A stretch of 64,000 nt of DNA, from assembly GCA_025999155.1 (NCBI GenBank), contig AP026679.1:602561-666560 (forward strand), written 5' to 3'. The notes beneath the pieces are model-generated. The model was not told the origin of the DNA. It did no database searches and was given only the letters and a program-made list of their open reading frames with translations. How positions within the stretch are numbered: position 1 is the first letter of the stretch; each line of letters opens with the position of its first letter. Of this stretch, positions 1,498-61,212 are shown piece by piece. The position numbers and the translations under genes were made by a program. The stretch comes from Candidatus Dojkabacteria bacterium (GTDB lineage Bacteria > Patescibacteriota > Dojkabacteria > JAOAGR01).

Positions 1498-4090
1498 ATG
1501 TATAAAAACAAGTTTACTAAAAATGCTATTGCCGTCGTAGAGTCCGCCACTAAAGCATGTGTTCGGTTAGGTTCGAAAGTGATGACATGTGGAACATTTA
1601 TTTATCGGCATTTTAAGTGTAAAAGAGGGTGTTGGATCCAGAATATTAGCTCGTTTAGGACTCGATCCAGATGCTACTTTAGAAAGCATAGAGAATGAAC
1701 TGAAGGGTGAGCTCGTCATCACAAGACGTTAATTCAAAATTTGGATGAGGTAGTCTGATAGTCTTTGTATCGGATGATGTCAAATCAGGCATTCGAAAAG
1801 GCCTTTGACTATGCGATGAATGCGGGGCACACCTATATTGGGACTGAGCATCTATTGTTAGGAATTTTATCGATCAGCGATAATGCTTTTGTCAAGGAGC
1901 TTGATAAATTAAATATAAATTTCCGAAAAATTAAATCAGAAATTGATAGTTTTGTGCAGTATCCTGAGTTTACAAATACTGAAGTTTTGGATAGTTTGAC
2001 AGGACAGCCAAATGTTCAGTTACCGGATCTACCTAATAAAAATTCATCGCAAAATCGAGGTTTTCTCGAGACTTATGGGCGAAATCTTGTTAGAGAGGCA
2101 AGACAAGGTAAATTAGATCCAGTAATTGGTCGAGATAAAGAAATACTCCGAGTAATGCAAATTTTAGCTCGTCGTACGAAAAATAACCCGATTTTACTCG
2201 GTGATGCGGGAGTTGGTAAAACTGCTGTTGTCGAGGGTCTCGCTCAGCGTATTGCAAATAATGCAGTTTCTCCCGTTTTAGCCGGTTTTGAAATTTGGTC
2301 CGTCGATACAGCTTCAATTATTGCCGGATCTCAATTAAGGGGGGATGTAGAGTCTAAACTACTAGACTCTGATATCTGAGATTGAAAGCAGACAAAACGT
2401 GATTTTATTTATTGATGAAATTCATACCATATTAGGTGCTGGTTCAACTTCTAATAGTCCACTTGATATTGCAAATATTTTGAAACCTGCTTTAGCTAGA
2501 GGAGCATTACGTTGTATTGGTGCTACAACAGTTGATGAATATAAAAAGCATTTTGATGAAGATCCCGCTCTGCAAAGAAGATTTCAACCTGTAGATATAG
2601 AAGAGTTATCTGAGGAAGATACACTAACCGTTTTAAAGAACCTGCGTCCTATATATGAAGCCTTCCATAATGTCAAAATTACAGACGGTGCTTTACAGGC
2701 AGCAATAAAGTTATCAAAAAGGTATATAACTGATCGTTATCTGCCTGATAAAGCTATAGATATTATTGATGAGGCTTGTGCTAGAAATAAACTTGAGAGA
2801 GTACAGTTAAGTGATGAATTCAAACAAGAATTAGAACGTTTACGACAAATAATAAAAAACAAAAATGATGCTTTGAAAACAAAAGATTTTGATAAAGCTG
2901 CCTCTTTATTAGAGGAAGAGAATCAAATTACTCAGCGACTTAATGAAATAGAAAAACAATTAAAACGCAGTTGGAACTCTTCAAATAGGTTTATTAATGA
3001 GAGAGATATAAAAAATGTCATTACACTGTGGACAAAAATTCCAATTGAGACTTTAGATCAATCTACTGTCGAAAGTATAAAAAAATTGAAGGCAGATCTA
3101 TCACGTAATATCCTTGGTCAAGAGTATGCCACTAGTGTTGTCGTAAATGCTATTAAACGTACTAAAGCTGGGCTTGCCGGCTTTGATAGGCCTTTAGCAT
3201 CGTTTCTGTTTGTAGGTCCTACAGGAGTAGGAAAGACTGAGCTTGCAAAACAGTTGGCAAAATCACTTTTTGGCAGTAAAGATGCTTTGATTCAAGTTGA
3301 CATGAGTGAATTAATGGAATCGCATAGTGTATCAAAACTTATAGGTTCGCCTCCTGGCTATGTAGGTTTTGAGCAAGGAGGCCTATTGACCGATCGAGTT
3401 CGTCGTAGACCCTTTTCAGTTTTGCTATTCGATGAAATTGAGAAAGCAAGTCCGGAAGTGCTGAATATACTGCTACAGATTCTTGACGAAGGGCGTTTGA
3501 CGGACAGTAAGGGCAGAACAGTTAATTTTAAAAACACTATTGTCATTATGACTTCGAATATTGGCGCAGAATACGTTCATAAAGACATAGCTATAGGGTT
3601 ATATATTGGTGATAAAAAAAGAGATAATGAACTTGACCATGAGTTCGATCATGCTATGGCTGATATTCGTGAGAAAATCATCACGGAATTAAAAGACTAC
3701 CTGCAACCAGAATTTTTAAATCGTATAGATGACATCGTAGTATTTAGAGAATTGACACAAAAAGATGTAAAAAAAATAGCTAGACTACAAATACGAAATC
3801 TAGTTAATCGGTTGAGAAAAGAAAATAGGGTCATTGTTCATAACGCAGATTCTAAAGATATTATTGACTATGTTACTAGAGTAGGCTTTTCTGAGGAATA
3901 CGGGGCTCGCGAGATTAGGAGGGTGATTAAAAATACTATCGAAAACCTTGTCGCTGATAAACTCATTGATTTACATTGGGATAGCGATAAGAAGGGATGG
4001 TTACATCTAGAGGTCTCTCTAGGAAATAACAAGATATCTGTAAAAGAGATCAAAAGCATATCAAAAAATAATTCACGAGAAAGGCGTTAA
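1498..4090 (+). pseudogene. clpC: ClpC/ClpB-type AAA+ chaperone ATPase, at least three frame changes (about 1585, 1700-1765, 2365)
   Basis: Clp_N repeats (HVEHLFIGILSVKEG, GTEHLLLGILS); D1 Walker [19 protein letters not shown]; LISEIESRQNVILFIDEIHT only after a frame change; D2 Walker A GPTGVGKTELAK. Pieces are 1498-1585, about 1586-1733, 1765..2379 and 2399..4090. Confidence 0.75.
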
Positions 4091-12051: not shown

Positions 12052-12477
12052 ATGGAGACCATAATGCGATTAAATGCATATCTTGCTAAATTTTCGAAGT
12101 TTATATTTGCTATATTTTTGCTGTTTTTATTCATTATTAATTTTATAAGTGTTCCTGCTGTTGCTAAATGTCCGGAAAATGTTGTGCCGAATCCGCTAGA
12201 TCCTAACTGTCAATTACAGCAACCCATCACTCTGGGCATGATTTTGAATCGAATCACTCCATTTATCCCAATTGCGGCAACAATTGCTGCAGTGTTCATG
12301 TTGATTGCAGGGGCGTTCGTGATGTTGACGTCTCAAAATGAGGAGGGACGACGTAAAGCGATACAGTTCTGGATTAATGCCGCCATTGGTCTGGTGCTTT
12401 TATTCTCGATATGGCTCATTTTATTTCTCATCTCGATATTTACTGGTGTGGATTTATTAAGTGCTGTAGGACAATGA
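12052..12477 (+). CDS. pilin-like secreted protein 1 (VirB2/TrbC-like topology: signal peptide, Cys region, C-terminal TM-loop-TM)
   Basis: Likely start at 12064 (MRLNAYLAKFSKFIFAIFLLF signal). C-terminal hairpin IAATIAAVFMLIAGAFVMLT-SQNEEGRRKAIQ-FWINAAIGLVLLFSIWL. Stop overlaps the next start (ATGA at 12474-12477). Confidence 0.45.
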   Translation: METIMRLNAYLAKFSKFIFAIFLLFLFIINFISVPAVAKCPENVVPNPLDPNCQLQQPITLGMILNRITPFIPIAATIAAVFMLIAGAFVMLTSQNEEGRRKAIQFWINAAIGLVLLFSIWLILFLISIFTGVDLLSAVGQ

Positions 12478-13118
12478 GATTATTATTCATCAGAAAGTTC
12501 AAACGGTATTTATCTCTTATATTCGTTTTTATTTTATCTGTTTGTTTTTTCTATTTTATTTCGGTGCATGTTTTTCAATCAAATGTTTTCGTACTGTTTG
12601 CTCCATCGCCAGTCTCCGCAGAGTCACGTTTGGAATGTCATGATCCTGCTTCCGATGTGTATGATTCTGCAGAATGCGTAAGGGTTAGGTTAGGTCTACA
12701 AGAGATTAAGACAGAGTCATTTCTTATACCCAGAAATCCGAATGACATCATTACATTAGTTTTTATTGTTGTGTTGGCGATTGCTTTCATGGTTTCAGTA
12801 TTTAGGGCTATACTAATAAGTATGAAGTTCTCTGCAGCTGGGGATAATGTGGAAAAGAGACAGGAAGCTCTAAAACAACTCGTGGCATCCCTAATTGCGG
12901 TGGCTGTGTCTTTTTCTGCTTTAGGTATAACTACGTTTATTGTAGTAGATTTACTAGGAGGTACGGTTAATAATACATTAGTTGATTGTGATAACTTACC
13001 AGCGAATGCCTCACAGGAATTAAAAGATAAGTGCAATTTATATATAAATAATGTAATTCCTACGCAAGATAGTGATCCTGGAAGGAGGCCTGTGGGTCCC
13101 ACTATGAGGGCAGAATAG
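12474..13118 (+). CDS. pilin-like secreted protein 2 (paralog)
   Basis: Signal-like N-terminus MRLLFIRKFKRYLSLIFVFIL. Hairpin LVFIVVLAIAFMVSVFRAILISM-KFSAAGDNVEKRQEALKQ-LVASLIAVAVSF. Cys-containing C-terminal tail. Confidence 0.45.
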   Translation: MRLLFIRKFKRYLSLIFVFILSVCFFYFISVHVFQSNVFVLFAPSPVSAESRLECHDPASDVYDSAECVRVRLGLQEIKTESFLIPRNPNDIITLVFIVVLAIAFMVSVFRAILISMKFSAAGDNVEKRQEALKQLVASLIAVAVSFSALGITTFIVVDLLGGTVNNTLVDCDNLPANASQELKDKCNLYINNVIPTQDSDPGRRPVGPTMRAE

Positions 13119-13171
13119 TTTTTTGTGATGAGTAGTATGGCTGTATAGGTTGCAAGTATACAAAAGTTGTA

Positions 13172-13801
13172 ATGTATGCTACAATTGTTTTGTACATTTA
13201 TATTATATTTATATTGATAGCTATGAAAATAGAATATACTAAAAATATTTCAGCAAAGATGGCTGTTCTGATATTTTTCCTTGCTGTGTTTGCTGTGGTG
13301 TTTTCGCTTAGCACCGTGGCGTATGCTCAGAATGCCAACAATAGTTGTGGTTCTGATCCATTAAGTGCTGCTTTCGGGTGTAACAGCATTATTAATAGTG
13401 GTAGAGGTATAGATATAGGTAGTATAATCACAATATTCTTTAGAGGTCTTTTAATTGCTTCTGGGGTATGGACTGTATGGCATTTTGCTCTTGCTGGCTT
13501 TAAGATTGGTGGTGCAAAAGAAGACGCTACAAAGAGGCAGGAAGGAATAAAGGCTGCTGTAAATGCCGTTTTAGGTCTTGTTGTCGCGCTGTTATCTTTT
13601 GGGGCGACTTCGCTTATTGCAGGTGCCGTAGGAGGAAGTGCGGCTATTTCTGCTGTAGGAACGCCGTGTACTGCTGTAGATGACCAAACTCAATTATTAT
13701 TTACAGGATTTATGGAGCAGGAGGGAGGATCTGTGTATTGTGTTTTGAGGGATGCACAAGGTAACCAACTCCGTAGGGGCCCTGTTACTTCAAGGACATA
13801 A
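13172..13801 (+). CDS. pilin-like secreted protein 3 (paralog)
   Basis: Alternative start at 13223 (MKIEYTKNISAKMAVLIFFLAVFAVVFSLSTVAYA). Hairpin GVWTVWHFALAGF-KIGGAKEDATKRQEGIKA-AVNAVLGLVVALLSFGA. Confidence 0.45.
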   Translation: MYATIVLYIYIIFILIAMKIEYTKNISAKMAVLIFFLAVFAVVFSLSTVAYAQNANNSCGSDPLSAAFGCNSIINSGRGIDIGSIITIFFRGLLIASGVWTVWHFALAGFKIGGAKEDATKRQEGIKAAVNAVLGLVVALLSFGATSLIAGAVGGSAAISAVGTPCTAVDDQTQLLFTGFMEQEGGSVYCVLRDAQGNQLRRGPVTSRT

Positions 13802-13905: not shown

Positions 13906-13982
13906 GAGCCATTAGCTCAGTTGGTTAGAGCACGGTTCTTATAAAGCCGGGGTCGCTGGTTCAAGCCCAGCATGGCTCACCA
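13906..13982 (+). tRNA. tRNA-Ile with unusual anticodon TAT (UAU), CCA encoded
   Basis: GAGCCAT/ATGGCTC acceptor stem, D-arm GCTCAGTTGGTTAGAGC, anticodon stem CGGTT/AGCCG with loop CTTATAA, T-arm GCTGGTTCAAGCCCAGC. Confidence 0.8.
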
Positions 13983-19040: not shown

Positions 19041-21763
19041 CTATTTGTTCAGGCAATCTGTCGGAACTCTGAATATTAGCGCTTTACAAATTGAGAGACC
19101 TTTCTGTCTCACTGTCTGGAAGAGAACATAATACCCTGGGAAAAACACTATAACCATAATCAAACTGCTTAGTAGACCGAACACTATAGTAAAGGCTAAT
19201 CCTTCCCAGAATGGATCGGATAATGCGAGAGGTAGCAAACTACCTATTGTAGTCAACGAAGTAACTATTATTGGTCGTACTCTTGACGCGGTAGCTTCGG
19301 CGATAGCTTTGGATATATTCCCTCCATTTTCTTTGAGTAATGCATTTGCAGTATCAACAAGAATGATTGTATTGTTGACTACTATACCTGCTAAGGCAAG
19401 TATGCCGATCACCACAAAAAAGCTAATTGGATTGCCAGTCAAGTACAGGCCCGGGAACAGTAATGGGAAGGAGAATGGTATTGCCATGAATATCAGTATA
19501 GGTAGTGAGTACGACGAATACTGTGCGACGAGGTAAGCGTACATCACTAACAAAGCTATATACAGACCAACAATGGCTGAATCAAATGATTCTCGATTCC
19601 TACTTTCGGATCCTAAATCTCTGCCTATATCCTTATTAATATCCAGCCCAAGCTCTGTTAGTTCATCTTTCGTTTGTCTCAATAACCTTCTTTCTGGATC
19701 GTAGTGATGTCGTTGGTATCTACCTGGGTGTCGAACTTAGCTTCTACTGAAGCAATTCTTTGATTATTCTCACGATATATCGTATCAACATTTCTGACCA
19801 CTACCTCAGCTAACTCTACTTTTTCACCATCTCTGATTAGTGTATTCAAGACTTCTCTAGCGTCTCTTTGAGTTCGTTCGTTGCCCTTCTCAGAGTTTCA
19901 GTGTCGTCTGAATACACTTGAATCTTAAATGGAAATTGATCTCTTGGTGGTCCGGAAGAGACTTGTGAGACCGAGATCACAGAGTCCGGGATGTTTTTTA
20001 GCTCTTTCTCGATACTTTTTGCTAGTTCAGATGCGGTGACATCTCTTCTGATCAGACGGGGATAGCTCGACCGATCCCGTGGTCGATAGGATCGATCCTC
20101 TATATATAACTTTGTTGGATATCGGCCTGATAATTTTTCAAGGATGTTCGTTGACTGATTCTACAATTTGTTTTTGTTTGTCTATGCTTGGTAGGCCGAC
20201 AGGTTGTATCGAAATAGTAAGTTCGTCACCGTCTTCAGCAGCAGGAAATATTGAGAATTTTAACTGACTGGCAAAAGATGATCCTAAAACAATAAAAACT
20301 AAACTCACAATAAGCATTGTTGTGAGAAATATAGGTTTACGTACATATGCATATACAAACTTCCCAATGATTTCTCCTAATCTGATAACAAGACCTCCTG
20401 TTACGCTTAATAGATTTTCGATTCTATCAATAAAATTCTGATTTTCTGGTTTCTTTGGTTGTTTTAGTATTAATGATGCCAATCCGGGTACTAAAGTCAG
20501 GGCAAGCAATAAGGAAAGTATCAGTGTAGTAATAACAGTTATAGGAATAAGTCGTATAAAATCACCTAAAACACCACTTATGAAAAGCATTGGAATAAAG
20601 ACAAGGATGGTTGTAACTGATCCTGCTATTTTCGCAATTCCAATAGAGTTTATTGCTTTCTTCACGGATGCTATACGACCTAAGCCTTGAGATCTATATG
20701 TCTCGATAGCTTCTACTACAACAGTTCCATCATCAACAAACACACCAAGTACCAAAATCAAAGCGAACAAAGATATGATATTGAGAGAATTAACAGAAAA
20801 GTAGATATACAGTATCGAAGAAGCAATAACAATCACGACAAATGAAGCCAATACTACAGCGGATCTGATATTAATTAACAATGCCACGATTAGTAAAACG
20901 ATAATTACAGCTCCTACCGTATTAGATTCCAATGAACTTATCTGCTGACGTATTGTTGGGGCAAAGTCCTGTGTAATTTCTATATTGTAATCTTTAAATT
21001 CATCTTTTGATTTCAGTGAATCTATGCTTTTTTGTACTGCATCAGAGAATTTTATAGCATCGAGGGATTCTTTTTTTATTAATCCAATTGATATTGCTTC
21101 GTAAGAGTCTAATTGATCATTATTTAATTTTACTATTCTGGTGAATCTTTCTTGTACTGGTATTTCCTGATTAGTAAATGGGTTTACACGTTTTTGTATG
21201 GCTTTTATTACTTCCGCTTGGATTATTTCATCTGTTTTTGCTAGTTCTGATGCGATTTTATCAGCAGTACTTTGTAATTCTGCTAAATCCGCATCACTTT
21301 GGTATACGTTAACGATAACGTCATATTTATTGTCGAACTTTCCTATATTAGGAGTTTGAACCTCGTATTTAGCCCCGTCTGGTATTTTAACTTTTTCAGA
21401 AATTGCTTCTTTAATAGTAGTTTTTACAGCTTGTGGGGAAGATCCTTCATTGAGAGTAATCACTATTACAAAACCGTTATCAGTTGTAGTGGATGAGATT
21501 TTGTTGACCTCTTTTAACTCGGCTAGTTGTCTTTCTATAGGTCCAGAAAATTCTTTATCAACCTTGTATTTATCGTTAACTTGATAATTTCCATTAATAA
21601 TTAATATAGGATTCTGGATGCTTGGAAAGCCTTCTTTTCTTAGAAACTGGGTGTATGCAATCCAACCTAATGCAATTATTCCGACAAACAAAAGTAGGGT
21701 AAACCTAATATTTTTTACAAATGGAATACTTAGTTTTGTAATGAAATTATCTTTCGTTTTCAT
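19041..21763 (-). pseudogene. RND-superfamily (AcrB/HAE-like) exporter, frame-disrupted in the 19683-20137 segment
   Basis: 541-aa N-terminal half (20138..21763) with TM1 and a large periplasmic loop; 19041..19682 is the RND C-terminus LALAGIVVNNTIILVDTANALLKENGGNISKAIAEATASRVRPIIVTSLTT. The middle lacks one continuous frame. Confidence 0.6.
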
Positions 21764-52943: not shown

Positions 52944-53147
52944 TTACCTACTAAATAGTGCCGAACTCCCTAAAAATAGTGAAATGACGGTAATTAATAC
53001 TACAAGAATCCACAATATTTTGAATGCTAGACTTGCAGTGTATTTCTTTAATTTATTTATTAGCCTTTTTAGCCAAAGATATAATCGCTTTTTGTCTGTT
53101 TTATGTATATGTATTAGTAATGACTTCATATATTTAAATTGTCGCAA
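52944..53147 (-). CDS. small basic protein with C-terminal TM helix, hypothetical
   Basis: 67 aa; KKRLYLWLKRLINKLKK then ILWILVVLITVISLFL. Lies between pilin-like gene 4 and folD on the same strand. Confidence 0.3.
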   Translation of the reverse strand: MRQFKYMKSLLIHIHKTDKKRLYLWLKRLINKLKKYTASLAFKILWILVVLITVISLFLGSSALFSR

Positions 53148-53180: not shown

Positions 53181-53861
53181 TTATTCACCACATGGATCAT
53201 TTCTATCGAAAGTAAGGTTAAAAACTATTGTATTTTGACAGATAAAGTTATATTCCTTACGTTCCGTATTTGCAACTCCAAATCCAAGCACCCCAACTAA
53301 GAAAAATACTAAGACAGGATAAGCGAACAAGAAACCAAACGTGGAGACGATTGATGCGACAAGACCTTTTACTGCTGTTTGTCTTTTATCTGTATTGTCT
53401 CCTGCCGTCATTATTAATACAGCAGCCTTTCCAATACTAAAGGCTAATACTAGGCCAACAATAGCGTATAGAATCATAACTATACGTACGATGATTTTTT
53501 GTAGAGTAGATGCGGAAGCACATGAGATGACCACTGGATTAATAGGATTACCTGCACTATCGAGTTGGTAACCGTAAACAACGGAACCGTTTACTCCTAC
53601 AGATACTTCAGGTCTCAGTGTAGGATTACCATAGCCATCTAAAGTTATATAAATGTTTTTTATGACATCGGGGCAGCCAGAGTTGTATATACGTCTAGCT
53701 ATTTCTTCAGCTTGGGGTGAGCTTCGATCTACCGGAGGACCATAGCTGTAGGCATATGCCGTGGAAATTTTACTTACTGTTGGAGTAATACCAAGACAAG
53801 CTAATATATTGAATATTACGAGCAGTAAGTATTTTGAATATTTACTTATATGAATTCTCAT
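53181..53861 (-). CDS. pilin-like secreted protein 4 (paralog of the 12.0-13.8 kb trio)
   Basis: Signal peptide KYLLLVIFNILACLGITPTVSKISTAYA. Hairpin IVRIVMILYAIVGLVLAFSIG-KAAVLIMTAGDNTDKRQTAVKG-LVASIVSTFGFLFAY. The loop is near-identical to protein 2 (SAAGDNVEKRQEALKQLVAS). Confidence 0.45.
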   Translation of the reverse strand: MRIHISKYSKYLLLVIFNILACLGITPTVSKISTAYAYSYGPPVDRSSPQAEEIARRIYNSGCPDVIKNIYITLDGYGNPTLRPEVSVGVNGSVVYGYQLDSAGNPINPVVISCASASTLQKIIVRIVMILYAIVGLVLAFSIGKAAVLIMTAGDNTDKRQTAVKGLVASIVSTFGFLFAYPVLVFFLVGVLGFGVANTERKEYNFICQNTIVFNLTFDRNDPCGE

Positions 53862-54027
53862 GATTGAATTTTTCTATATACTATATAATTTGATAATCTA
53901 ATTATTTCGAGTATAAAAAAGAAATGTATATAAAGCAATTCTAACATTAATTTCTCTCTTTAGTCATATGCAAGTTTTCTGTAATTTTCTTTACTTTTTT
54001 ATGGACATAACATTATATTTACAAAAT

Positions 54028-54042
54028 TTGTACTAGGTACAA
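54028..54042. promoter_or_regulatory. perfect palindrome TTGTACTAGGTACAA in the divergent promoter region between pilin-like genes 4 and 5
   Basis: 6-3-6 inverted repeat, 41 nt upstream of the 54083 start, inside a 220-nt AT-rich intergenic region. Confidence 0.3.
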
Positions 54043-54082
54043 GATTTATTGTTATTTAAAATAAATTATTCTATAATAAACC

Positions 54083-55075
54083 ATGTGGTGTGCACATAAA
54101 AATCTCCTCTTTGTTTTTTCTTTTGTTTTTATGAGCGTACTTTTTGGTGGGGTTGATTTTTCGCGGGTTTATGCACAGTCATCATTCACCGTTAATCCAT
54201 GCAAACCAACTGGTACTCAATCCAATGATGTAGCCTGTCGCTGTAAAAAAAATCAGTGTAGATTATCCAGTATGAATGCAGATGTTCTATACGTCAATTC
54301 TTCCAATTTGAGCGCAGCTGATTTCGACCCGAATTTGATAGCTGATGGGACTGTCTCAGAAACGACAGCTCTTGTAGTATCTATGCCGGGTTACGTATGT
54401 ATTGACGGGGTAGAAAAGTTAGATGCAAATACTTTTAGACTCGGAGAAGAAGGTAATAATCAAGTTCTTTCTAACTTTACCATATCTAACGTGTATGAGA
54501 CTCTGGAAACAGGTTCTGCTTCTTTACGTGCCGATTTAGATCCTAAAAATTCAGTTTATGTGGATGTCTTTGCTGATGATGTCAATAGATCATCTATACC
54601 TAAAGGTTCATTTTGTAAGCTAGATCCACAGTCGGGTGTTGCATATTGGTATTATCCGGGTTATTTTTCTGTGATTGGATTGAATCCTTCTGGTAATTCT
54701 GAGATATTTGGGCCAGGAGGTTTATGTGAAAATGTACTGTTTTCCTCAAGAGATTTGTTTGGTCAGCAAATTACTGGAACTCAAACTTTTTTTGGTTGTT
54801 TGCCGAATTCGCCAAATGGGTTAGTTGCGTTTATAGTGAGGTTAATTACTGGGTTAGCAGTTATTATAACATTTTTGATTATCCTAATTAATTTGTTGCA
54901 AATTATCTCAAATTCAACAAATCCGGATATCGTAGCTCGGGCTCAAAAGAAGATGACGAGTGCAATTATTACCTTAGTTGTAATCTTGTTTACTATTACT
55001 ATATTGAATATAATCGGCATTCAGATTATTGGTCTGGATGCTGGGGGAATATTCGGTCTATTTACGGGAGGCTAA
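54083..55075 (+). CDS. pilin-like protein 5 with an extended (about 230 aa) Cys-containing N-terminal domain
   Basis: Signal peptide LLFVFSFVFMSVLFGGVDFSRVYA, eight Cys in the N-domain. C-terminal hairpin LVAFIVRLITGLAVIITFLIILINLL-QIISNSTNPDIVARAQKKMTSA-IITLVVILFTITIL. Confidence 0.4.
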   Translation: MWCAHKNLLFVFSFVFMSVLFGGVDFSRVYAQSSFTVNPCKPTGTQSNDVACRCKKNQCRLSSMNADVLYVNSSNLSAADFDPNLIADGTVSETTALVVSMPGYVCIDGVEKLDANTFRLGEEGNNQVLSNFTISNVYETLETGSASLRADLDPKNSVYVDVFADDVNRSSIPKGSFCKLDPQSGVAYWYYPGYFSVIGLNPSGNSEIFGPGGLCENVLFSSRDLFGQQITGTQTFFGCLPNSPNGLVAFIVRLITGLAVIITFLIILINLLQIISNSTNPDIVARAQKKMTSAIITLVVILFTITILNIIGIQIIGLDAGGIFGLFTGG

Positions 55076-55116: not shown

Positions 55117-57558
55117 ATGATTTTGTTTGATATGAGATATTTTGTTAAAATGGCTTCTAATAAAGATAAAAATATATTGAATAAGTTAAAGAGGATTTTT
55201 TGTGCAGCATTGCCAAGTAGAGGAGATTTAGTACTTTTCGGTAAATCTCTAGTGTTTTTGTTTGCAATACTTCTTGGATTGTCATTATTTTCACACCTTG
55301 CATCACCTGTAAAGGCTTTTAACTGGCCATGGGTGGAAGAAAAGGAAGTAGATTCTGCACCTGATGCTTTTTTTCAGTATATGAATTTCCAGGTGGCTGG
55401 TTGTTTCGGGTTGTCACAAGCACGTGACATAAAATATTCTGCTTTTACCGAGAATTTAGGTGTTGGTAGGAAAGTTGCTGAATATTGCCGGCAATTATCG
55501 GGTCCAAATGCTGCTTCTTCAGATCAGAAAAGTGGAATGTATGATACGGGTTTAGGGTGGATACAAATAGATTACGGAGCTACTGGTAGATTGATAAATG
55601 CTACTGCATCGGTATACGGTACGCAAGCTGTTCAGCCTGGTATGACGGTAGAATACTATGCCAAAAGGATTAGGGGGGAAGTGCTTGCTGCTGACAATCC
55701 TATGAGTGGAAGAAGCGTGTTGGCTCCTATTCTAGTACTTAATCAGAATTTGGTTAATCTTGCATACGGTTTGGTGGTTGTTGTGCTGCTTGTTTCATCT
55801 TTGAACATTTTGCTTAGCTCATTGACTGGACAGGAGGAAAAGGTAACTATAGTCCAATTAGTGATGAACGCAGGGGTAACTCTTTTGATTATTACTTTTT
55901 ATTATGAGATAGCAGCTATAATCTATGATCTAACTGTGAATTATGGCAATGCCCTGGTTGCTTCAATGATGGCCCCCTTTATCAACTCAAAAGTCATATT
56001 AGAAAGACTCTCACCTGGAGGAGATTTAGCTGTTATAAATTTACTTAATGTATACCAGTTTGTTGGTGTATCTGATGCTTTGCTCGTAGTACTACAAAGT
56101 ATAATGTCTGGTTTGTATCCTGCAATCGCACAGTCAACATCAGCGATAGGCGCTTCTTTGGGTGGTAGAGGAACTATTGATTCTCCATTCAACATCTTTG
56201 CAGGAATCTTTCAGTTTGCAGGGGGGTTAGGAGCTACAGGAGCTAGTATCTTCATTTCATCTTTTTTAGGTAATGCCGAGATATTCCAAGCTATTATTTC
56301 ATGGACCATTTTTGGCATAAATATAAAAATATTTATTAATCTATTAACTTCTTTTGTTACATTTACTATTTATGTTGGTTTTGGACCTTTGATTGCATTA
56401 GGAGGTATAGATGGTGGGTTTGCAAGGATATCCGAATCATTTAAAAAATTATTTGCATTGGGACTTGTTTTTCCGATGACCTTCTTATTTATTCTCTTAG
56501 GAGCTACGGCACTTAATCTGTCAATCAGAGAAAAGCCTTACGATGCCTCACAAGATTCTGTCAAAGCTATACCGTTGTGTAAGTATTCCCCTAGTGATCC
56601 AGCGAATACTGAGAATTCCATAATAGATAATGCTGGTTTGACTCAGTGGCTGCAAGATAGCATTGGTGGTAATCCAGATGTAGAGGATCCTGCTCGCTTT
56701 CGAAATAAAAATTTTGTTAATCAGAACATATTCGATGTAGTGCCAAAAGGGTATATAGATGGACTGAGAGATTGTAGACCCTCTTTATTTCCTGTTCCTT
56801 GGACCTTTATCCCTGCACCTTTTGGGACAGTTGGACAAAGACAGCTTCAGATACAGACAATAGATTCTTTAGTAAGAACATTCTTGGCTTTAGTGTTTAT
56901 AATACTGGCAGCCAGAGTTCCAAGTATTGTAAATGAAGCTTTGGGGGTTAGGGAAATGAATTCTTTGTCTAATATTACTTCAGCATTTGGCGCAGGAGCC
57001 AAAGGTGCCTTCGGTGCTGGAGGTACTATTTTCGCTACGGGTTTAGGTATGCTGTCTGCTGCGACTTCTGCTGCGACTAGAGTACCTATTCCTTTAGCTG
57101 GTCATTTAAATTCGGCGCGGGGGCTTGGACAAAATAGCTATCTTCAAGCTGTAGGTGGAGTCCTAGGTAGAGTTGTGCAACGTCTAAACCCAAGTTCTGT
57201 CCAGGATATAATAGCCAACTATTCAAAAAGGCAAAGTACTCCTGCTGAGATGGTTAATCAGTTCAATAGTGTTCGAAATTCTTTCTTAGGTGCTACCCCT
57301 GGGGCAGCACCTGCTGGAGTACCTACTCCTGGTACACCTGCCGCCGCTGCGGCAGGTGCTATGGATCCTGCTTATGCATCTCTGATTGCAGCTGTCCAGT
57401 TAGGTACAGCTTTCAAAGACTTGTCACAACAGACTACCGCTTTAGGGACTGTATTTAGTACATTTGGTGGTTCTATCGTTGCATTAACAACACAAATCCA
57501 AGCGTTTGCTAAAGAATTACGAGGTTTCATTGCTACAATCTCTATTGATGACGTATAA
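55117..57558 (+). CDS. large polytopic membrane protein, VirB6/TrbL-like by architecture
   Basis: 813 aa: signal/TM, about 180-aa extracytoplasmic domain, 6 or more TM helices, Gly/Ala/Pro-rich C-terminal region (GAGAKGAFGAGG, PGAAPAGVPTPGTPAAAAAGA). Confidence 0.35.
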   Translation: MILFDMRYFVKMASNKDKNILNKLKRIFCAALPSRGDLVLFGKSLVFLFAILLGLSLFSHLASPVKAFNWPWVEEKEVDSAPDAFFQYMNFQVAGCFGLSQARDIKYSAFTENLGVGRKVAEYCRQLSGPNAASSDQKSGMYDTGLGWIQIDYGATGRLINATASVYGTQAVQPGMTVEYYAKRIRGEVLAADNPMSGRSVLAPILVLNQNLVNLAYGLVVVVLLVSSLNILLSSLTGQEEKVTIVQLVMNAGVTLLIITFYYEIAAIIYDLTVNYGNALVASMMAPFINSKVILERLSPGGDLAVINLLNVYQFVGVSDALLVVLQSIMSGLYPAIAQSTSAIGASLGGRGTIDSPFNIFAGIFQFAGGLGATGASIFISSFLGNAEIFQAIISWTIFGINIKIFINLLTSFVTFTIYVGFGPLIALGGIDGGFARISESFKKLFALGLVFPMTFLFILLGATALNLSIREKPYDASQDSVKAIPLCKYSPSDPANTENSIIDNAGLTQWLQDSIGGNPDVEDPARFRNKNFVNQNIFDVVPKGYIDGLRDCRPSLFPVPWTFIPAPFGTVGQRQLQIQTIDSLVRTFLALVFIILAARVPSIVNEALGVREMNSLSNITSAFGAGAKGAFGAGGTIFATGLGMLSAATSAATRVPIPLAGHLNSARGLGQNSYLQAVGGVLGRVVQRLNPSSVQDIIANYSKRQSTPAEMVNQFNSVRNSFLGATPGAAPAGVPTPGTPAAAAAGAMDPAYASLIAAVQLGTAFKDLSQQTTALGTVFSTFGGSIVALTTQIQAFAKELRGFIATISIDDV

Positions 57559-57566
57559 GATCTTCT

Positions 57567-60227
57567 ATGAATCCTGCTACAGGTGGCGAACAAAATGGTA
57601 ACCCGATAGGACCTGCACAGATTCCTGGCGGAGTATCGGGTTCGAATGTCGGTAGTCAGCCAAAAGGATGGAGTCCCTGGGTTAATTCAGGAGGACTAGC
57701 GGCTGGATCTGGACAAAAGAACTCACCACAGGATAATCCCCCCCAACAGAATACACCACAAAGCAACTTTACATCAGCAGTGTTACAGAAGTTGCAAGAA
57801 CAAAATGAGCTACTTGCAAACTCCGGCTCACCAAATACTGAGCGACCAGAGACTCATCTATTGAACAATTCTCTACAAGGATCTGGCTATCCATTCGGGT
57901 CAGGATGGGGACCCAATGACTCTGCACCAAAAGGATTAGGGGTTGATTCGTCGCAACCAAGAACAAGAGGGCGTCTAAGTCCAGAGGTCCCATCTAATAC
58001 ATTCGGCACTTCCATACGACAAGTTCCATCAGTTACCGGCCTAGGATTGCAACCAGCAGCAAGCTTGCAACTTCCAACTGTTCGTTCGGGAAATCCTCCA
58101 CAAGCTGAAGCAAATACTCAAGGCGGAGATACTAAGGATCCATACAACGTCGCATATCTGCAAAGATTAAATCTTGATGGACTTCGCGGCGGAGGATCGG
58201 CTGAGTCAAGATTTAAACGTTTTGCTTCTGCAGCTAATCTTGGTGAAAAACCACCACCTATACTAAGATCATCACAGATCACCTTAGAACAAGGACAACA
58301 GCCATCTGATACACATACAACTAATTCAAATGTTTCGAGTGTGGGGGCGTTCGGTTCTGAATCAGTTGAAGCAACAGTTAATGCTGGGTCTCTTGCGGAT
58401 TCTATTGATACTAAATCTGAAGGAGATGTTGAGAAGCGTAGAAGTGCAGGATCAGCAAGAGGGAGACAGGTAGCAAGAAGAAAAAGATCAGCAGCAAGCA
58501 GAGTGGGAGTAGCAAATACGGTATATATGCCATCACTTAGTCCACACGGTGGTACAACATTGGGGGGGCAAGGAGTTGATACACCTACTGTAACGAGTTC
58601 AGAAATTCAGGGTACAGGTAGGCAACGTTCTTCTCTCCTTGTCCAGGGTGGAGAAGCAAGAGCTGGGTACGGGCCTATGTCAGACGTTTGGGAAGAGCCC
58701 ATATCTGAGGCTTGGAAACAGCCCGAGTCGGACGCTTGGCAACAGGGAGATCCTAAAACTGTTGCAGGACAGTCTCCTTCGGATGCTCCTTCCCGGGATG
58801 TAGATGTACAGCAACTTAAGACTCAAATCGATGGTGCGCAACAAATTGGACAACGGACACGATCAACAGCCTCCAATCTAGGTCAAGGTCTTGCCTCTAC
58901 AGGAAATAAAGCATCCCGAGCTCTTAAAACCGCAGCGACAGCTAGTAGGACAGCGCTTGTTGCAGGTAGGGCAGCGGTCTCCGCCATCGGAGCTGCACTA
59001 GCAACTCCTCAGGGTTGGTTCATTTTACTAGTGATTATTGTGTTGATACTTATAATAATAATTATTATAGTAGTGATCATACAGAGCTCTCAATCGAATT
59101 CAATTGCTGCAACTAATGAGGTAGCTCGCGAAACTGTACAAGCAACTATCAGTTCTGCTGCTTTTTCTGTTCTTGGCCCCAGTATCGGGCGTAATATACA
59201 GGTCCCCTTGGTTGCTAATTCTGATGGTGTAGAGAAAGACTCGAGTGATGCTGTCAGAAAAATATATGTTAGAGCTTTCCATCAATTAAGCGCTGATTCT
59301 AAAATTCAAGATTATAAGCTGACTTTACGAGTTAGTTTTCCTAACTCCTTAAATTTGTTAACACCGGAAGGGAAAGTTCTCGACAGAAACTCAAGTATCA
59401 TGACATTTAATGTTATAGGTGTGAGTAGTTTTGCTGTGATTGGCACAGATGCTGTGCGATGGGAATGTTCAAATGCTTGTAAAAGTACTGATATCGAAAT
59501 TATATTTACGAGTCCTATCGATCTTGCTAGCAGTGGCGGGCAAATATTACTGACTCTGGTTGCTTCAGATTTAAAGGATCAGCAAGGGGTTGTACTGCCA
59601 ACTACACAGATACGGGAGCTATGCTATGATGTTACTAATGTAGCAGGGTGTACGACAGCTACCCGATATGGTTCGGGTTCTGTAAGTGGAGGGGTATCAG
59701 GCCAACAGAATACCGGTTACACATCTGATGGTGTGTTACAGGTATGTCCTATGGATGTGAAAATCAATACTGGTGGCATAATATGTACTTCTGGAATGAA
59801 AGATAAAAGAGGCAATAAAGATCATAATGCAGTTGATATCGCTAGTGCTGATAATCAAGGGTTTTTGACGCAAGATGTAGTATCCCCAGTGACAGGTATA
59901 ATTGTGGCTATGTCTGATCCAAAATCAGAATTGCGTATAGGAGGAAGATGGTATCAGATTCAGGACGCTCAAAGGCCAGAATATACTTATGTAATTGCTC
60001 ATTTACAGCCTAATACAGAACCACAAGGTAGAGCATTTAATAAGGGAACAAGAATACAAGCAGGACAAATATTAGGAAAACCTTTTTATGCTACATCCGG
60101 ATATGACCGCCAATATTGGTCTGGACCTCATGTACACTTCCAGGTTCGACGAAATGGACAGGCCATCGATCCTGCTCCAGCCATAAGAGAAAAATGTGGT
60201 TGGCAGAATTTCAGATGTCCTAATTAA
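57567..60227 (+). CDS. bitopic cell-wall hydrolase: about 480-aa G/P/Q/S-rich disordered N-terminus, TM, extracytoplasmic domain ending in an M23 (LytM) peptidase
   Basis: TM GWFILLVIIVLILIIIIIIVVII at about aa 490. Canonical M23 order HNAVDIA ... VIAHL ... GQILG ... GPHVHFQV; paired Cys (CSNACKS, CYDV..GCTT, CPMD..ICTSG). Confidence 0.6.
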   Translation: MNPATGGEQNGNPIGPAQIPGGVSGSNVGSQPKGWSPWVNSGGLAAGSGQKNSPQDNPPQQNTPQSNFTSAVLQKLQEQNELLANSGSPNTERPETHLLNNSLQGSGYPFGSGWGPNDSAPKGLGVDSSQPRTRGRLSPEVPSNTFGTSIRQVPSVTGLGLQPAASLQLPTVRSGNPPQAEANTQGGDTKDPYNVAYLQRLNLDGLRGGGSAESRFKRFASAANLGEKPPPILRSSQITLEQGQQPSDTHTTNSNVSSVGAFGSESVEATVNAGSLADSIDTKSEGDVEKRRSAGSARGRQVARRKRSAASRVGVANTVYMPSLSPHGGTTLGGQGVDTPTVTSSEIQGTGRQRSSLLVQGGEARAGYGPMSDVWEEPISEAWKQPESDAWQQGDPKTVAGQSPSDAPSRDVDVQQLKTQIDGAQQIGQRTRSTASNLGQGLASTGNKASRALKTAATASRTALVAGRAAVSAIGAALATPQGWFILLVIIVLILIIIIIIVVIIQSSQSNSIAATNEVARETVQATISSAAFSVLGPSIGRNIQVPLVANSDGVEKDSSDAVRKIYVRAFHQLSADSKIQDYKLTLRVSFPNSLNLLTPEGKVLDRNSSIMTFNVIGVSSFAVIGTDAVRWECSNACKSTDIEIIFTSPIDLASSGGQILLTLVASDLKDQQGVVLPTTQIRELCYDVTNVAGCTTATRYGSGSVSGGVSGQQNTGYTSDGVLQVCPMDVKINTGGIICTSGMKDKRGNKDHNAVDIASADNQGFLTQDVVSPVTGIIVAMSDPKSELRIGGRWYQIQDAQRPEYTYVIAHLQPNTEPQGRAFNKGTRIQAGQILGKPFYATSGYDRQYWSGPHVHFQVRRNGQAIDPAPAIREKCGWQNFRCPN

Positions 60228-60237
60228 AAAATTCACT

Positions 60238-61212
60238 ATGCCAAGTACGCATGTTAAATTAGATAAAAAAATAATACTAGGTTTAATTGCAGTATTTATA
60301 CTATTTTTAGTGCTTTTACTACAGTCGATTTTTGTAAGGCCGTCATCAGATTCTAAACCTAAGTTTGATACCATTGAATTGCAATCTTTCTCTAATTACA
60401 AGTATGGCGATTACTTTACCGTAAATAGCGACATTGAATTCAAAACTACCAGCAATACTCTTGTATATAAAGTATCTGGTATTAATTCTGGGATAGAATC
60501 TGTCAAAAATGCAGCTTTGAAGTTAGGTCTTAGCAAGGAAATTCCTAACGTAAATACAAAAATCACAAAATGGGTAAAAGACGATGATAATGTACGTGCT
60601 CTGAATTCGGTCACTTTAGACAATATAAAAGGGACAGTTAATGTCTTTTATGAAAATGGTATCAATGAGAAGCCACTAGAGAGTGAAGATTATCTTAATT
60701 ATTTGAAGAGTTTTTTTGGTTTTCCGGATATGTATGAGATATATTTGATTAGTAAGGAAACTCAGCAAGATAGTGAGTTTTTAAATTATGGGGTCAAATG
60801 GCAGGAAAAAGATATCTATTTTGATCAGGCAGATAATATTTTTCTCAGCGTAACTATTGTCAATAAAAAAATCATCAGTGTATTTTTTCACTTGTTACCT
60901 ACCGAAATTACCGACTTTAAAAAGTTGAAGCCGATTGATAGGGTGACAAAAGATAATATTGCTTCTTATTATTATCAATTAAGTCTGAAACCGGAGGAAA
61001 TTCATAGCGCTTCAGAATATGGTAGCGAAACAATTGTTGTACCACCTGTGAAAGTTGGTTTAAGAGACCAAAAAGACGCATATATTTTATTTAACGATCC
61101 TACTTTGTCGTGGTTGCTTATACCTGTAATCGATTTTAACGGAGTATTTTTGGATGCAAATAACCAAAAGGGTAGCGCGAGTCTTTTGATAGTTAATCAA
61201 AATAATCGATAG
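60238..61212 (+). CDS. N-terminally membrane-anchored extracytoplasmic protein (VirB8/TcpC-like placement, unverified)
   Basis: TM IILGLIAVFILFLVLLLQSIF, then a 290-aa soluble domain. Directly follows the M23 hydrolase gene; ORF track start 60196 overlaps it, so the ATG at 60238 is more likely. Confidence 0.3.
   Translation: MPSTHVKLDKKIILGLIAVFILFLVLLLQSIFVRPSSDSKPKFDTIELQSFSNYKYGDYFTVNSDIEFKTTSNTLVYKVSGINSGIESVKNAALKLGLSKEIPNVNTKITKWVKDDDNVRALNSVTLDNIKGTVNVFYENGINEKPLESEDYLNYLKSFFGFPDMYEIYLISKETQQDSEFLNYGVKWQEKDIYFDQADNIFLSVTIVNKKIISVFFHLLPTEITDFKKLKPIDRVTKDNIASYYYQLSLKPEEIHSASEYGSETIVVPPVKVGLRDQKDAYILFNDPTLSWLLIPVIDFNGVFLDANNQKGSASLLIVNQNNR

Follow-up and report, generated by a model that had tools for sequence, protein, structure and literature searches.

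The mature pilins of the canonical conjugative systems (VirB2, TrbC and TraA) have about 70 aa and carry no extra domain. In Patescibacteria, essential arrays of sequence-divergent VirB2-like pilins have been described and proposed to aid adaptation to different hosts (PMC12102498; PMC10633639; PMC12857230), and the essential pilin array of Southlakia epibionticum is of the PF18895 type (PMC10633639; PMC12102498). These pilins are described as small proteins encoded in arrays of 2-11 genes, long forms not being discussed, and virB4 or other type IV secretion system (T4SS) genes were found beside them in 1135 of 1948 assemblies, i.e., typically but not obligatorily (PMC12102498). How ultra-small Patescibacteria recognize and hold their hosts is largely unexplained; in the only system examined for this, the VirB2-like pilin arrays proved essential. 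Here, we describe a gene related to these pilins in a 64,000-nucleotide stretch of DNA (the window) of a Candidatus Dojkabacteria bacterium (contig AP026679.1, positions 602,561 to 666,560 of the forward strand). The gene (54083..55075, + strand, ATG start) encodes a 330-aa protein composed of a signal peptide, a cysteine-rich ectodomain and a C-terminal PF18895-like hairpin, as deduced from the open reading frame (ORF), its homologues, AlphaFold2 and hhalign. We give about even chances to the reading that we favour, in which this protein belongs, as a diversifying subunit exposed at the surface, to a pilin-like envelope apparatus specific to the Dojkabacteria lineage. The hairpin superfamily and the diversity of its paralogs were already known (PMC12102498; PMC10633639; PMC12857230); the new elements are a subfamily that bears an ectodomain and scores below the threshold, the fixed operon that encodes it with no virB4 nearby, an even-cysteine rule and a localized mosaic hypervariability that affects the ectodomains of two neighbouring genes.

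In NCBI, the 330-aa protein corresponds with 100 % identity to KatS3mg084_0599 from a Candidatus Dojkabacteria metagenome-assembled genome (738-kb contig), and a homologue search with it retrieved 23 more clusters. The dN/dS ratio (omega) is 0.20-0.27 for the whole gene and 0.05-0.08 in the conserved blocks of aa 158-248. This purifying selection identifies it as a genuine gene, and together with the 36 full-length relatives it ruled out a spurious ORF or a pseudogene. The protein begins with a Sec signal peptide of the classical type, MWCAHKNLLFVF...RVYA/QSS (the slash marks the predicted cut), and the hydrophobic module lies at the C-terminus. The signal peptide (aa 1-31; 54083..54175, + strand), with K6 and a hydrophobic core, was recognized from the sequence, from a helix modelled at residues 4-22 and from the family alignment, in which an A-x-A-type cleavage site followed by Q or a similar residue recurs among the homologues. 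A pilin of the type IV pilus/type II secretion kind was discarded, given that the protein has no class III signal peptide (G-1/F+1/E+5 with an N-terminal hydrophobic helix). In the mature protein, all on the + strand, the ectodomain starts with aa 32-52 (54176..54238), which contains the non-conserved C40 according to the family alignment. It continues with a hypervariable distal part at aa ~53-160 (54239..54562), delimited by the alignment, the strain comparison and low-confidence loops at 84-95 and 144-155, and with a conserved membrane-proximal block at aa 161-248 (54563..54826), defined by its invariant columns, its identity and its omega of 0.05-0.08. The VirB2-like hairpin occupies aa 249-330 (54827..55072) and consists, according to hydropathy, AlphaFold2 and hhalign, of a first transmembrane (TM) helix, the short basic loop NSTNPDIVARAQKKM, a second TM helix and a C-terminal tail. 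The sequence-only reading had counted about 230 aa before the hairpin; about 31 aa of these form the cleavable signal peptide, leaving a mature ectodomain of about 215 aa.

The hairpin is the part that relates the protein to known pilins. Its two TM segments are both strong by hydropathy (~251-269 and 295-313), and AlphaFold2 modelled the helices at 244-276 and 281-310 with a predicted local distance difference test (pLDDT) score of 81-89. The loop between them, ARAQKKM, is basic, and the protein thus has the layout of PF18895 proteins, in which a signal peptide is followed by two TM helices that a short basic loop connects. Its score on PF18895 (T4SS_pilin) is 20.7 bits (E 4.3e-4), the gathering threshold being 26.6 bits. 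The family profile, searched against 1.84 billion representative proteins, matched 26 clusters over the whole protein at E<=1e-30, after which the scores fell sharply from 191 to 111 bits; 3880 more proteins followed at E<=1e-3 and, among the matches listed, aligned mainly with profile positions ~190-320. These partial matches have in common the motif G-x-x-T-x-x-G-C-(L/I/F)-P directly before the first TM helix, and 7 of the 10 that were sampled score at or above the PF18895 gathering threshold. Aligned by hhalign with 12 such C-termini, taken from the matches of the family's own profile and individually confirmed above the gathering score in 6 of the 12 cases, the family gave a probability of 99.65 % (E 4.2e-25; aa 224-321 of the protein, 100 columns). 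This alignment and the shared motif assign the hairpin to the VirB2-like pilin superfamily of Patescibacteria, of which, by these profile comparisons, it is a divergent member. The "conserved" hairpin of the sequence-only reading thus holds as a profile-level relation, but not as direct similarity to the paralogs in the window (BLASTP E 0.05-0.7); conservation at the sequence level with the four short paralogs was discarded, the pairwise BLASTP values being non-significant. Sequence searches of the PDB gave nothing at E<=10 with the family profile and no pilin with a PF18895-type profile.

The architecture of signal peptide, cysteine-rich ectodomain and hairpin was confirmed, but it is less special than the window alone would suggest. 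Among 111 partial matches with the motif, the N-terminal extension before it comprises at least 150 aa in 70, at least 250 aa in 41 and at least 400 aa in 9. The long extensions of these related proteins have a median cysteine content of 4.7 %, against 3.85 % in the 330-aa protein, and accepted PF18895 members of 354-611 aa exist without any second Pfam domain. Long cysteine-rich ectodomains on such hairpins are a common theme and not a rarity. At the other end, nearly all family members finish exactly in ...(I/L)F-x-(L/F)-F-(T/V)-G-G, a conserved extreme C-terminus that would lie outside the membrane and could be a processing or recognition site. RP4 TrbC and Ti VirB2 undergo trimming and cyclisation, a resemblance that we take as an analogy only.

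All eight cysteines that had been listed before are present, i.e., C40 (PCKPTG), C52, C54 and C59 (ACRCKKNQCRLS), C106 (VCIDG), C178 (FCKLD), C215 (LCENV) and C239 (FGCLP), and a ninth one, C3, lies inside the signal peptide. In the family alignment C52, C54, C59, C106, C178 and C239 are invariant, C215 is nearly invariant and C40 is not conserved. The invariant ectodomain motif D-V-x-C-R-C-x-x-N-Q-C-R-L-S begins within the segment of aa 32-52 and ends at aa 62; other invariant features are C106, D161-x-F, C178-KLDP, AYWYYPGYF and DLFG, P173 and C215 belong to the conserved block of aa 161-248, and the motif GTQTFFGC239LPNSxNG immediately before the hairpin is invariant in the family. Mean pairwise identity across the family is 49-66 % in the block of aa 161-248. 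The inserts of the distal ectodomain are rich in indels, ranging family-wide from 10 to 79 aa between C59 and C106 and from 41 to 199 aa between C106 and D161. Of the 36 family members, 32 have an even number of cysteines after residue 30 (8, 10, 12, 14 or 18), and of the 111 related hairpin proteins, 95 have an even number after residue 25. Full extracellular disulfide pairing predicts even counts, with insertions bringing in cysteines pairwise, and the counts fit the presence of four disulfides in the ectodomain. The AlphaFold2 model of the whole protein, built on a 24-sequence alignment, has a mean pLDDT of 66.7 and predicts for the ectodomain a beta-rich core (strands 58-70, 97-108, 158-161, 171-180, 187-190 and 232-241, pLDDT 70-86) with low-confidence loops at 84-95, 144-155 and 195-213. 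According to this model the ectodomain is folded and beta-rich, with no disordered linker. A disordered or generic linker, the outcome that would have spoken against the sequence-only reading, does not agree with this core, with the invariant motifs or with the even cysteine counts. No Pfam or NCBIfam family matched the N-terminal domain.

As the sequence-only reading had stated, the gene is transcribed divergently from a pilin paralog, here named pil226, which encodes a 226-aa pilin-like protein (53181..53861, - strand; PF18895 22.3 bits and hydropathy). It is followed at 41 nt by mem813, encoding an 813-aa polytopic membrane protein (55117..57558, + strand; hydropathy and homologues). To compare the variability of these genes we used four strains, the window (W) and its relatives L012, L013 and L014. 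Between W and L012 the flanking DNA is 95-100 % identical and the mem813 gene 97-99 %, and an island of divergence covers pil226 codons ~15-114 (73-83 %), the intergenic region (85-88 %) and codons ~53-160 of the 330-aa protein. In this last segment nucleotide identity to the closest relative is 55-75 %, the lowest values against L012 being 55-57 % between aa 73 and 113 and 62 % between aa 133 and 153, and it is the most variable stretch in ~9 kb of an otherwise near-identical genome. The hairpins, in contrast, keep 93-100 % (pil226) and 85-100 % (330-aa protein) nucleotide identity with L012. Thus, between near-identical strains the distal ectodomain is hypervariable and the hairpin conserved, the difference that the sequence-only reading had suggested looking for, and this favours surface exposure of the distal part.

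The alleles do not share a single history. The mutL genes of W, L012 and L013 are 95-99 % identical (99 % between L012 and L013), and the mem813 gene is only 81 % identical between L012 and L013, yet 97 % between W and L012; therefore, the whole operon, and not the ectodomains only, has been exchanged between lineages. The nearest pair is W-L013 for the pil226 ectodomain (88 %) and W-L012 for its hairpin (96 %), and such different nearest relatives indicate that pil226 is an intragenic mosaic. The variable segment of the 330-aa protein shows 66-75 % identity in all six strain pairs, and therefore each strain has its own allele. At aa 63-100 omega is 0.48-1.1 and dS 1.0-1.4, compared with 0.15 in mutL, values that come from 20-38 codons of a poorly alignable stretch. 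The high synonymous divergence and the incongruent neighbours point to old alleles exchanged by recombination, beyond fast point mutation alone.

This pattern recalls the VirB2 arrays of Bartonella and Anaplasma and the type IV pilins of Neisseria, where a conserved assembly module is combined with a strain-variable exposed part and alleles recombine. It differs from these systems in that the organism is an uncultured bacterium of the candidate phyla radiation (CPR), the 64-kb window contains no silent cassettes and the variation is seen here between strains. A conserved assembly module joined to a folded domain with a variable, mosaic distal part is what one would expect of a protein that determines contact or specificity.

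The pair belongs to a rigidly conserved locus. In 12 of 12 related loci, as far as each contig extends, the order is mutL/folD, a small TM ORF, pil226 on the - strand and, on the + strand, a target-family gene (32-81 % identity to the 330-aa protein), a gene for a protein of ~800 aa, a gene for an M23 peptidase protein of ~900 aa, a gene for a bitopic protein of ~340 aa and mutS. The sequence-only reading would have lost ground if the gene did not co-occur with the pilin paralogs across genomes; in fact, pil226 stands beside it in 11 of the 12, which is every related locus that reaches far enough to show the paralog. Downstream of mem813, the third gene encodes an 886-aa protein (57567..60227, + strand; Pfam and hydropathy) with a ~480-aa G/S/P/Q-rich N-region, one TM segment at 486-504 and an ectodomain ending in an M23 peptidase domain (752-869). 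Its N-region is probably disordered, has a G+C content of up to 42-44 % and shows ~40 % nucleotide identity and many indels against L013 and L014, with indels even against the closest relative. The last gene encodes x338, a 338-aa bitopic protein (60196..61212, + strand; TM 26-44 by hydropathy, no family match), whose true start is probably the ATG at 60238. The gaps between these genes are only 41 nt and 8 nt, followed by an overlap, which indicates a single transcription unit.

The distribution of the mem813 family (29 clusters, all at E<1e-190, many on contigs that also bear target-family members) is as narrow as that of the 330-aa protein's family, and a homologue search with x338 gave 4 proteins only. 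The named genome records of the relatives are Dojkabacteria, and three records labelled 'uncultured Candidatus Saccharibacteria' have the same synteny. Housekeeping genes surround the locus (clpB, murJ, pnp, thrS, recG, an addA-like gene, ftsA, ftsE, ftsX, an EnvC-like M23 gene, mutL, folD and mutS), and upstream of mutL/folD the relatives carry ftsA … ftsE ftsX M23. The operon is vertically kept, lineage-restricted and chromosomal. A mobile-element origin was rejected, given that the locus lies between mutL/folD and mutS in every relative, although its alleles appear to recombine.

Two smaller features flank pil226. The divergent intergenic region has 221 bp (53862..54082) and contains a promoter-like TTGTTA-17-TATAAT at 54049..54077, a consensus match only, which ends 5 nt upstream of the ATG of the 330-aa protein; no Shine-Dalgarno-like sequence precedes this start. 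The site so close to the ATG and the missing Shine-Dalgarno sequence hint at a leaderless or near-leaderless transcript. Downstream of pil226 lies a small ORF for a basic 67-aa protein with a single TM segment (52944..53147, - strand; ORF call and hydropathy). ORFs of 59-63 aa were called at the same position in related loci, only one ortholog being detectable by BLAST, and the 67-aa ORF may represent a conserved small membrane partner.

Taken as a subunit of a lineage-specific pilin-like envelope apparatus, the 330-aa protein would work as follows. It would leave the cytoplasm through Sec, and signal peptidase I would remove the leader after ~A31, the predicted site. The ~215-aa ectodomain would fold outside the membrane, locked by four putative disulfides, and the hairpin would enter the membrane so that the short basic loop faces the cytoplasm and the two ends lie outside, which is the topology of VirB2/TrbC-type conjugative pilins. 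The block of aa 161-248 and the hairpin would then dock to pil226 and mem813, the presumed partners, while the M23 peptidase would open the cell wall. The segment of aa ~53-160 would be the exposed face, contacting something extracellular, most likely the surface of a host cell, the bacterium being a presumed epibiont, and the diversity of this distal face between strains would be maintained by selection and allele recombination. This scheme starts from what the analysis established, namely the architecture, the homology of the hairpin to PF18895, the even-cysteine rule, the rigid synteny, the purifying selection on scaffold and hairpin and the localized mosaic hypervariability; incorporation into a filament, ligand binding and a link to a VirB4-powered T4SS are steps that we infer only. 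A more specific version appears rather improbable to us: the divergent pair would form the part that recognizes the host in a pilin-based contact apparatus peculiar to Dojkabacteria, whose genes lie in a fixed chromosomal operon away from any virB4, and the segments swapped between strains by recombination (aa ~53-160 of the 330-aa protein and aa ~15-114 of pil226) would set to which host cells the epibiont can attach. If this version were true, the swapped part would be a candidate host-range determinant of an uncultured CPR lineage. Should a role of the protein in contact or specificity be confirmed, its variable segment might be used as a marker to predict strain-level host range from metagenomes; otherwise, the protein would be an ordinary lineage-specific membrane protein.

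Several results weigh against the favoured reading. All 24 family members stay below the PF18895 gathering score, with E values no better than 4.3e-4. Because all its members are below the threshold, the family carries no annotation in the databases, and surveys with hidden Markov models that apply this threshold could miss the long forms. Foldseek on the hairpin model returned generic helical hairpins only (E>0.7), with no conjugative pilin among the 50 matches listed. The structure prediction and fold search proposed by the sequence-only reading gave the folded ectodomain; no adhesin or lectin fold was found, Foldseek against the PDB and BFVD having 0 matches at E<=1e-3. The rates at aa 63-100 come from few codons, and relaxed constraint on the loops could explain part of the variability, though probably less of the mosaic picture. 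As for the T4SS, no family match to VirB4, VirD4, VirB3, TrsD or VirB8 was found among the ORFs scanned in the window, which included all those of at least 500 aa, or within +/-10 kb of the related loci L001-L003; in fact, no window ORF of at least 500 aa is a VirB4- or VirD4-type ATPase. Pfam searches with 7 mem813 and 5 x338 orthologs gave nothing meaningful, and hhalign detected no profile similarity of mem813 and x338 to Orf15 and Orf13 of Tn916 or to PrgH and PrgL of pCF10. Finally, a VirB6-like role of mem813 is a weak lead, resting on a single non-significant signal: its AlphaFold2 model is poor (pLDDT 48.8), and the top Foldseek match among 350,542 PDB chains was TrwI/VirB6 of the R388 T4SS (7o3v_F; E 0.62, prob 0.33). 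Sequence searches of the PDB with mem813 and x338 gave nothing at E<=10. According to a preprint, Dojkabacteria are one of the lineages that have a T4SS (10.1101/2025.01.22.634366), and for this reason a VirB4 may exist elsewhere in the genome.

The main rival, unlikely in our view but the strongest of the alternatives, treats the hairpin as a mere anchor: the protein would stay in the cytoplasmic membrane as a surface or wall-associated factor that acts with the M23 operon in envelope remodelling, and its variation would come from phage or predator pressure, for example if it were a phage receptor, and not from host binding. The M23 peptidase in the operon, the ftsA-ftsE-ftsX and EnvC-like M23 genes adjoining it in all relatives and the lack of a nearby T4SS ATPase suit this view, and the frequent long and varied ectodomains on the same hairpin are what would be expected of a generic anchor module. 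However, a single TM helix would be enough for anchoring, the conserved pre-hairpin motif, the loop and the ...FTGG tail suggest a specific interaction, and the fts genes may adjoin the operon simply because gene order is kept across the genomes of this clade. Next in our ranking, and likewise unlikely, is a minor pilin or tip adhesin placed at the end of a VirB2-like filament of the short paralogs or sparsely along it, with the T4SS encoded elsewhere and the variable loops binding a host receptor. In classical virB operons VirB5 precedes VirB6, and the 330-aa gene lies directly upstream of the polytopic mem813 in a comparable way; it is also paired with a short paralog, it combines a variable distal domain with a conserved polymerisation-type module, and the preprint reports a T4SS for Dojkabacteria (10.1101/2025.01.22.634366). 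Against it, neither a VirB5 family match nor a helical VirB5-type fold was found and no VirB4 is nearby, and the pil226 ectodomain is equally variable, so that there is no division into a conserved major and a variable minor subunit. In addition, there is so far no filament evidence for any Patescibacteria T4SS or pilin: only a 'potential to elaborate conjugative pili' has been stated (PMC12857230).

Two further explanations fare worse. A 'decorated' filament, of which this protein would form the major subunit and in which every copy would carry the 215-aa ectodomain on the outside, seems very unlikely. In conjugative pili of known structure, the ends of the pilin point outward and its loop borders the lumen, which in principle leaves room for an N-terminal domain; however, the subunits of the solved VirB2-type pili have ~70 aa, we know of no precedent for a 215-aa domain on every pilus subunit, and the four shorter paralogs are better candidates. 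Hardly any weight can be given to the last one, in which the variability would be produced by a diversity-generating retroelement or by silent cassettes, as with pilE/pilS of Neisseria. Such retroelements are frequent in CPR genomes, but the 64-kb window holds no further copy of the gene pair above chance at the DNA level (E>=0.1) and none of either ectodomain at the protein level, and a scan of its larger ORFs revealed no reverse transcriptase. Given this lack of a template repeat, a silent cassette or a reverse transcriptase in the window, a dedicated mutagenic system is unlikely, and the differences between strains include indels and changes at all bases, not at adenine-templated sites only.

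Compared with the known systems, the 330-aa protein shares with the Patescibacteria VirB2-like pilins the signal peptide, the motif G-x-x-T-x-x-G-C-(L/I/F)-P, the hairpin with a short basic loop and the presence of paralogs of very low identity, and differs from them in its sub-threshold score, its own ~215-aa ectodomain (26 clusters), the absence of virB4 in its neighbourhood and its fixed operon between mutL and mutS. The predicted cleaved leader and the hairpin with its loop on the cytoplasmic (lumen) side resemble VirB2/TrbC/TraA of the Agrobacterium T-pilus, RP4 and F; the protein has no detectable sequence similarity to any solved pilin. With VirB5/TraC it would have in common a contact-making role and a gene located directly before that of a large polytopic membrane protein. 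VirB5 is mainly helical, whereas this ectodomain is predicted to be beta-rich and anchored by a VirB2-like hairpin, and neither Pfam nor NCBIfam gave a VirB5/TraC match for the protein, nor did the PDB for the model. The order polytopic protein, wall hydrolase and bitopic protein of ~310-340 aa is also that of Orf15-Orf14-Orf13 in Tn916 and of PrgH, PrgK and PrgL in pCF10, where PrgK is said to carry an M23/LytM-type domain. These modules differ from the present one in that no sequence or profile similarity between them was detected and neither VirB4 nor VirB3 adjoins the operon.

Other pilin-like genes are found far from this operon. An array of three short pilin-like paralogs (12052..13801, + strand), recognized by PF18895 and by its architecture, is located between pnp and tRNA-Ile/thrS. 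Two of its members, 12052-12477 (141 aa, 34.1 bits) and 12411-13118 (235 aa, 29.5 bits), score above the PF18895 threshold, and the third one, 13172-13801 (209 aa), has the same architecture and no Pfam match. These array paralogs have paired cysteines in short external segments, and T4SS genes are not nearby.

Elsewhere in the window, where the G+C content ranges from 31 to 44 %, the tRNA-Ile at 13906-13982 (+ strand) was assigned the anticodon TAT (UAU) by ARAGORN. This is uncommon, since in most bacteria AUA is decoded by a CAU tRNA with a lysidine modification. The region 1765-4090 (+ strand) contains a ClpB-like 563-aa ORF (2399-4090) located 19 nt after a 204-aa ORF, and it may be a split ClpB gene. 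At 19041-21763 (- strand), an RND/SecDF-like transporter was detected by matches to the Pfam family ACR_tran in two ORFs (541 and 213 aa). Both the ClpB-like and the ACR_tran ORF pairs could be split genes, frameshifts or assembly errors.

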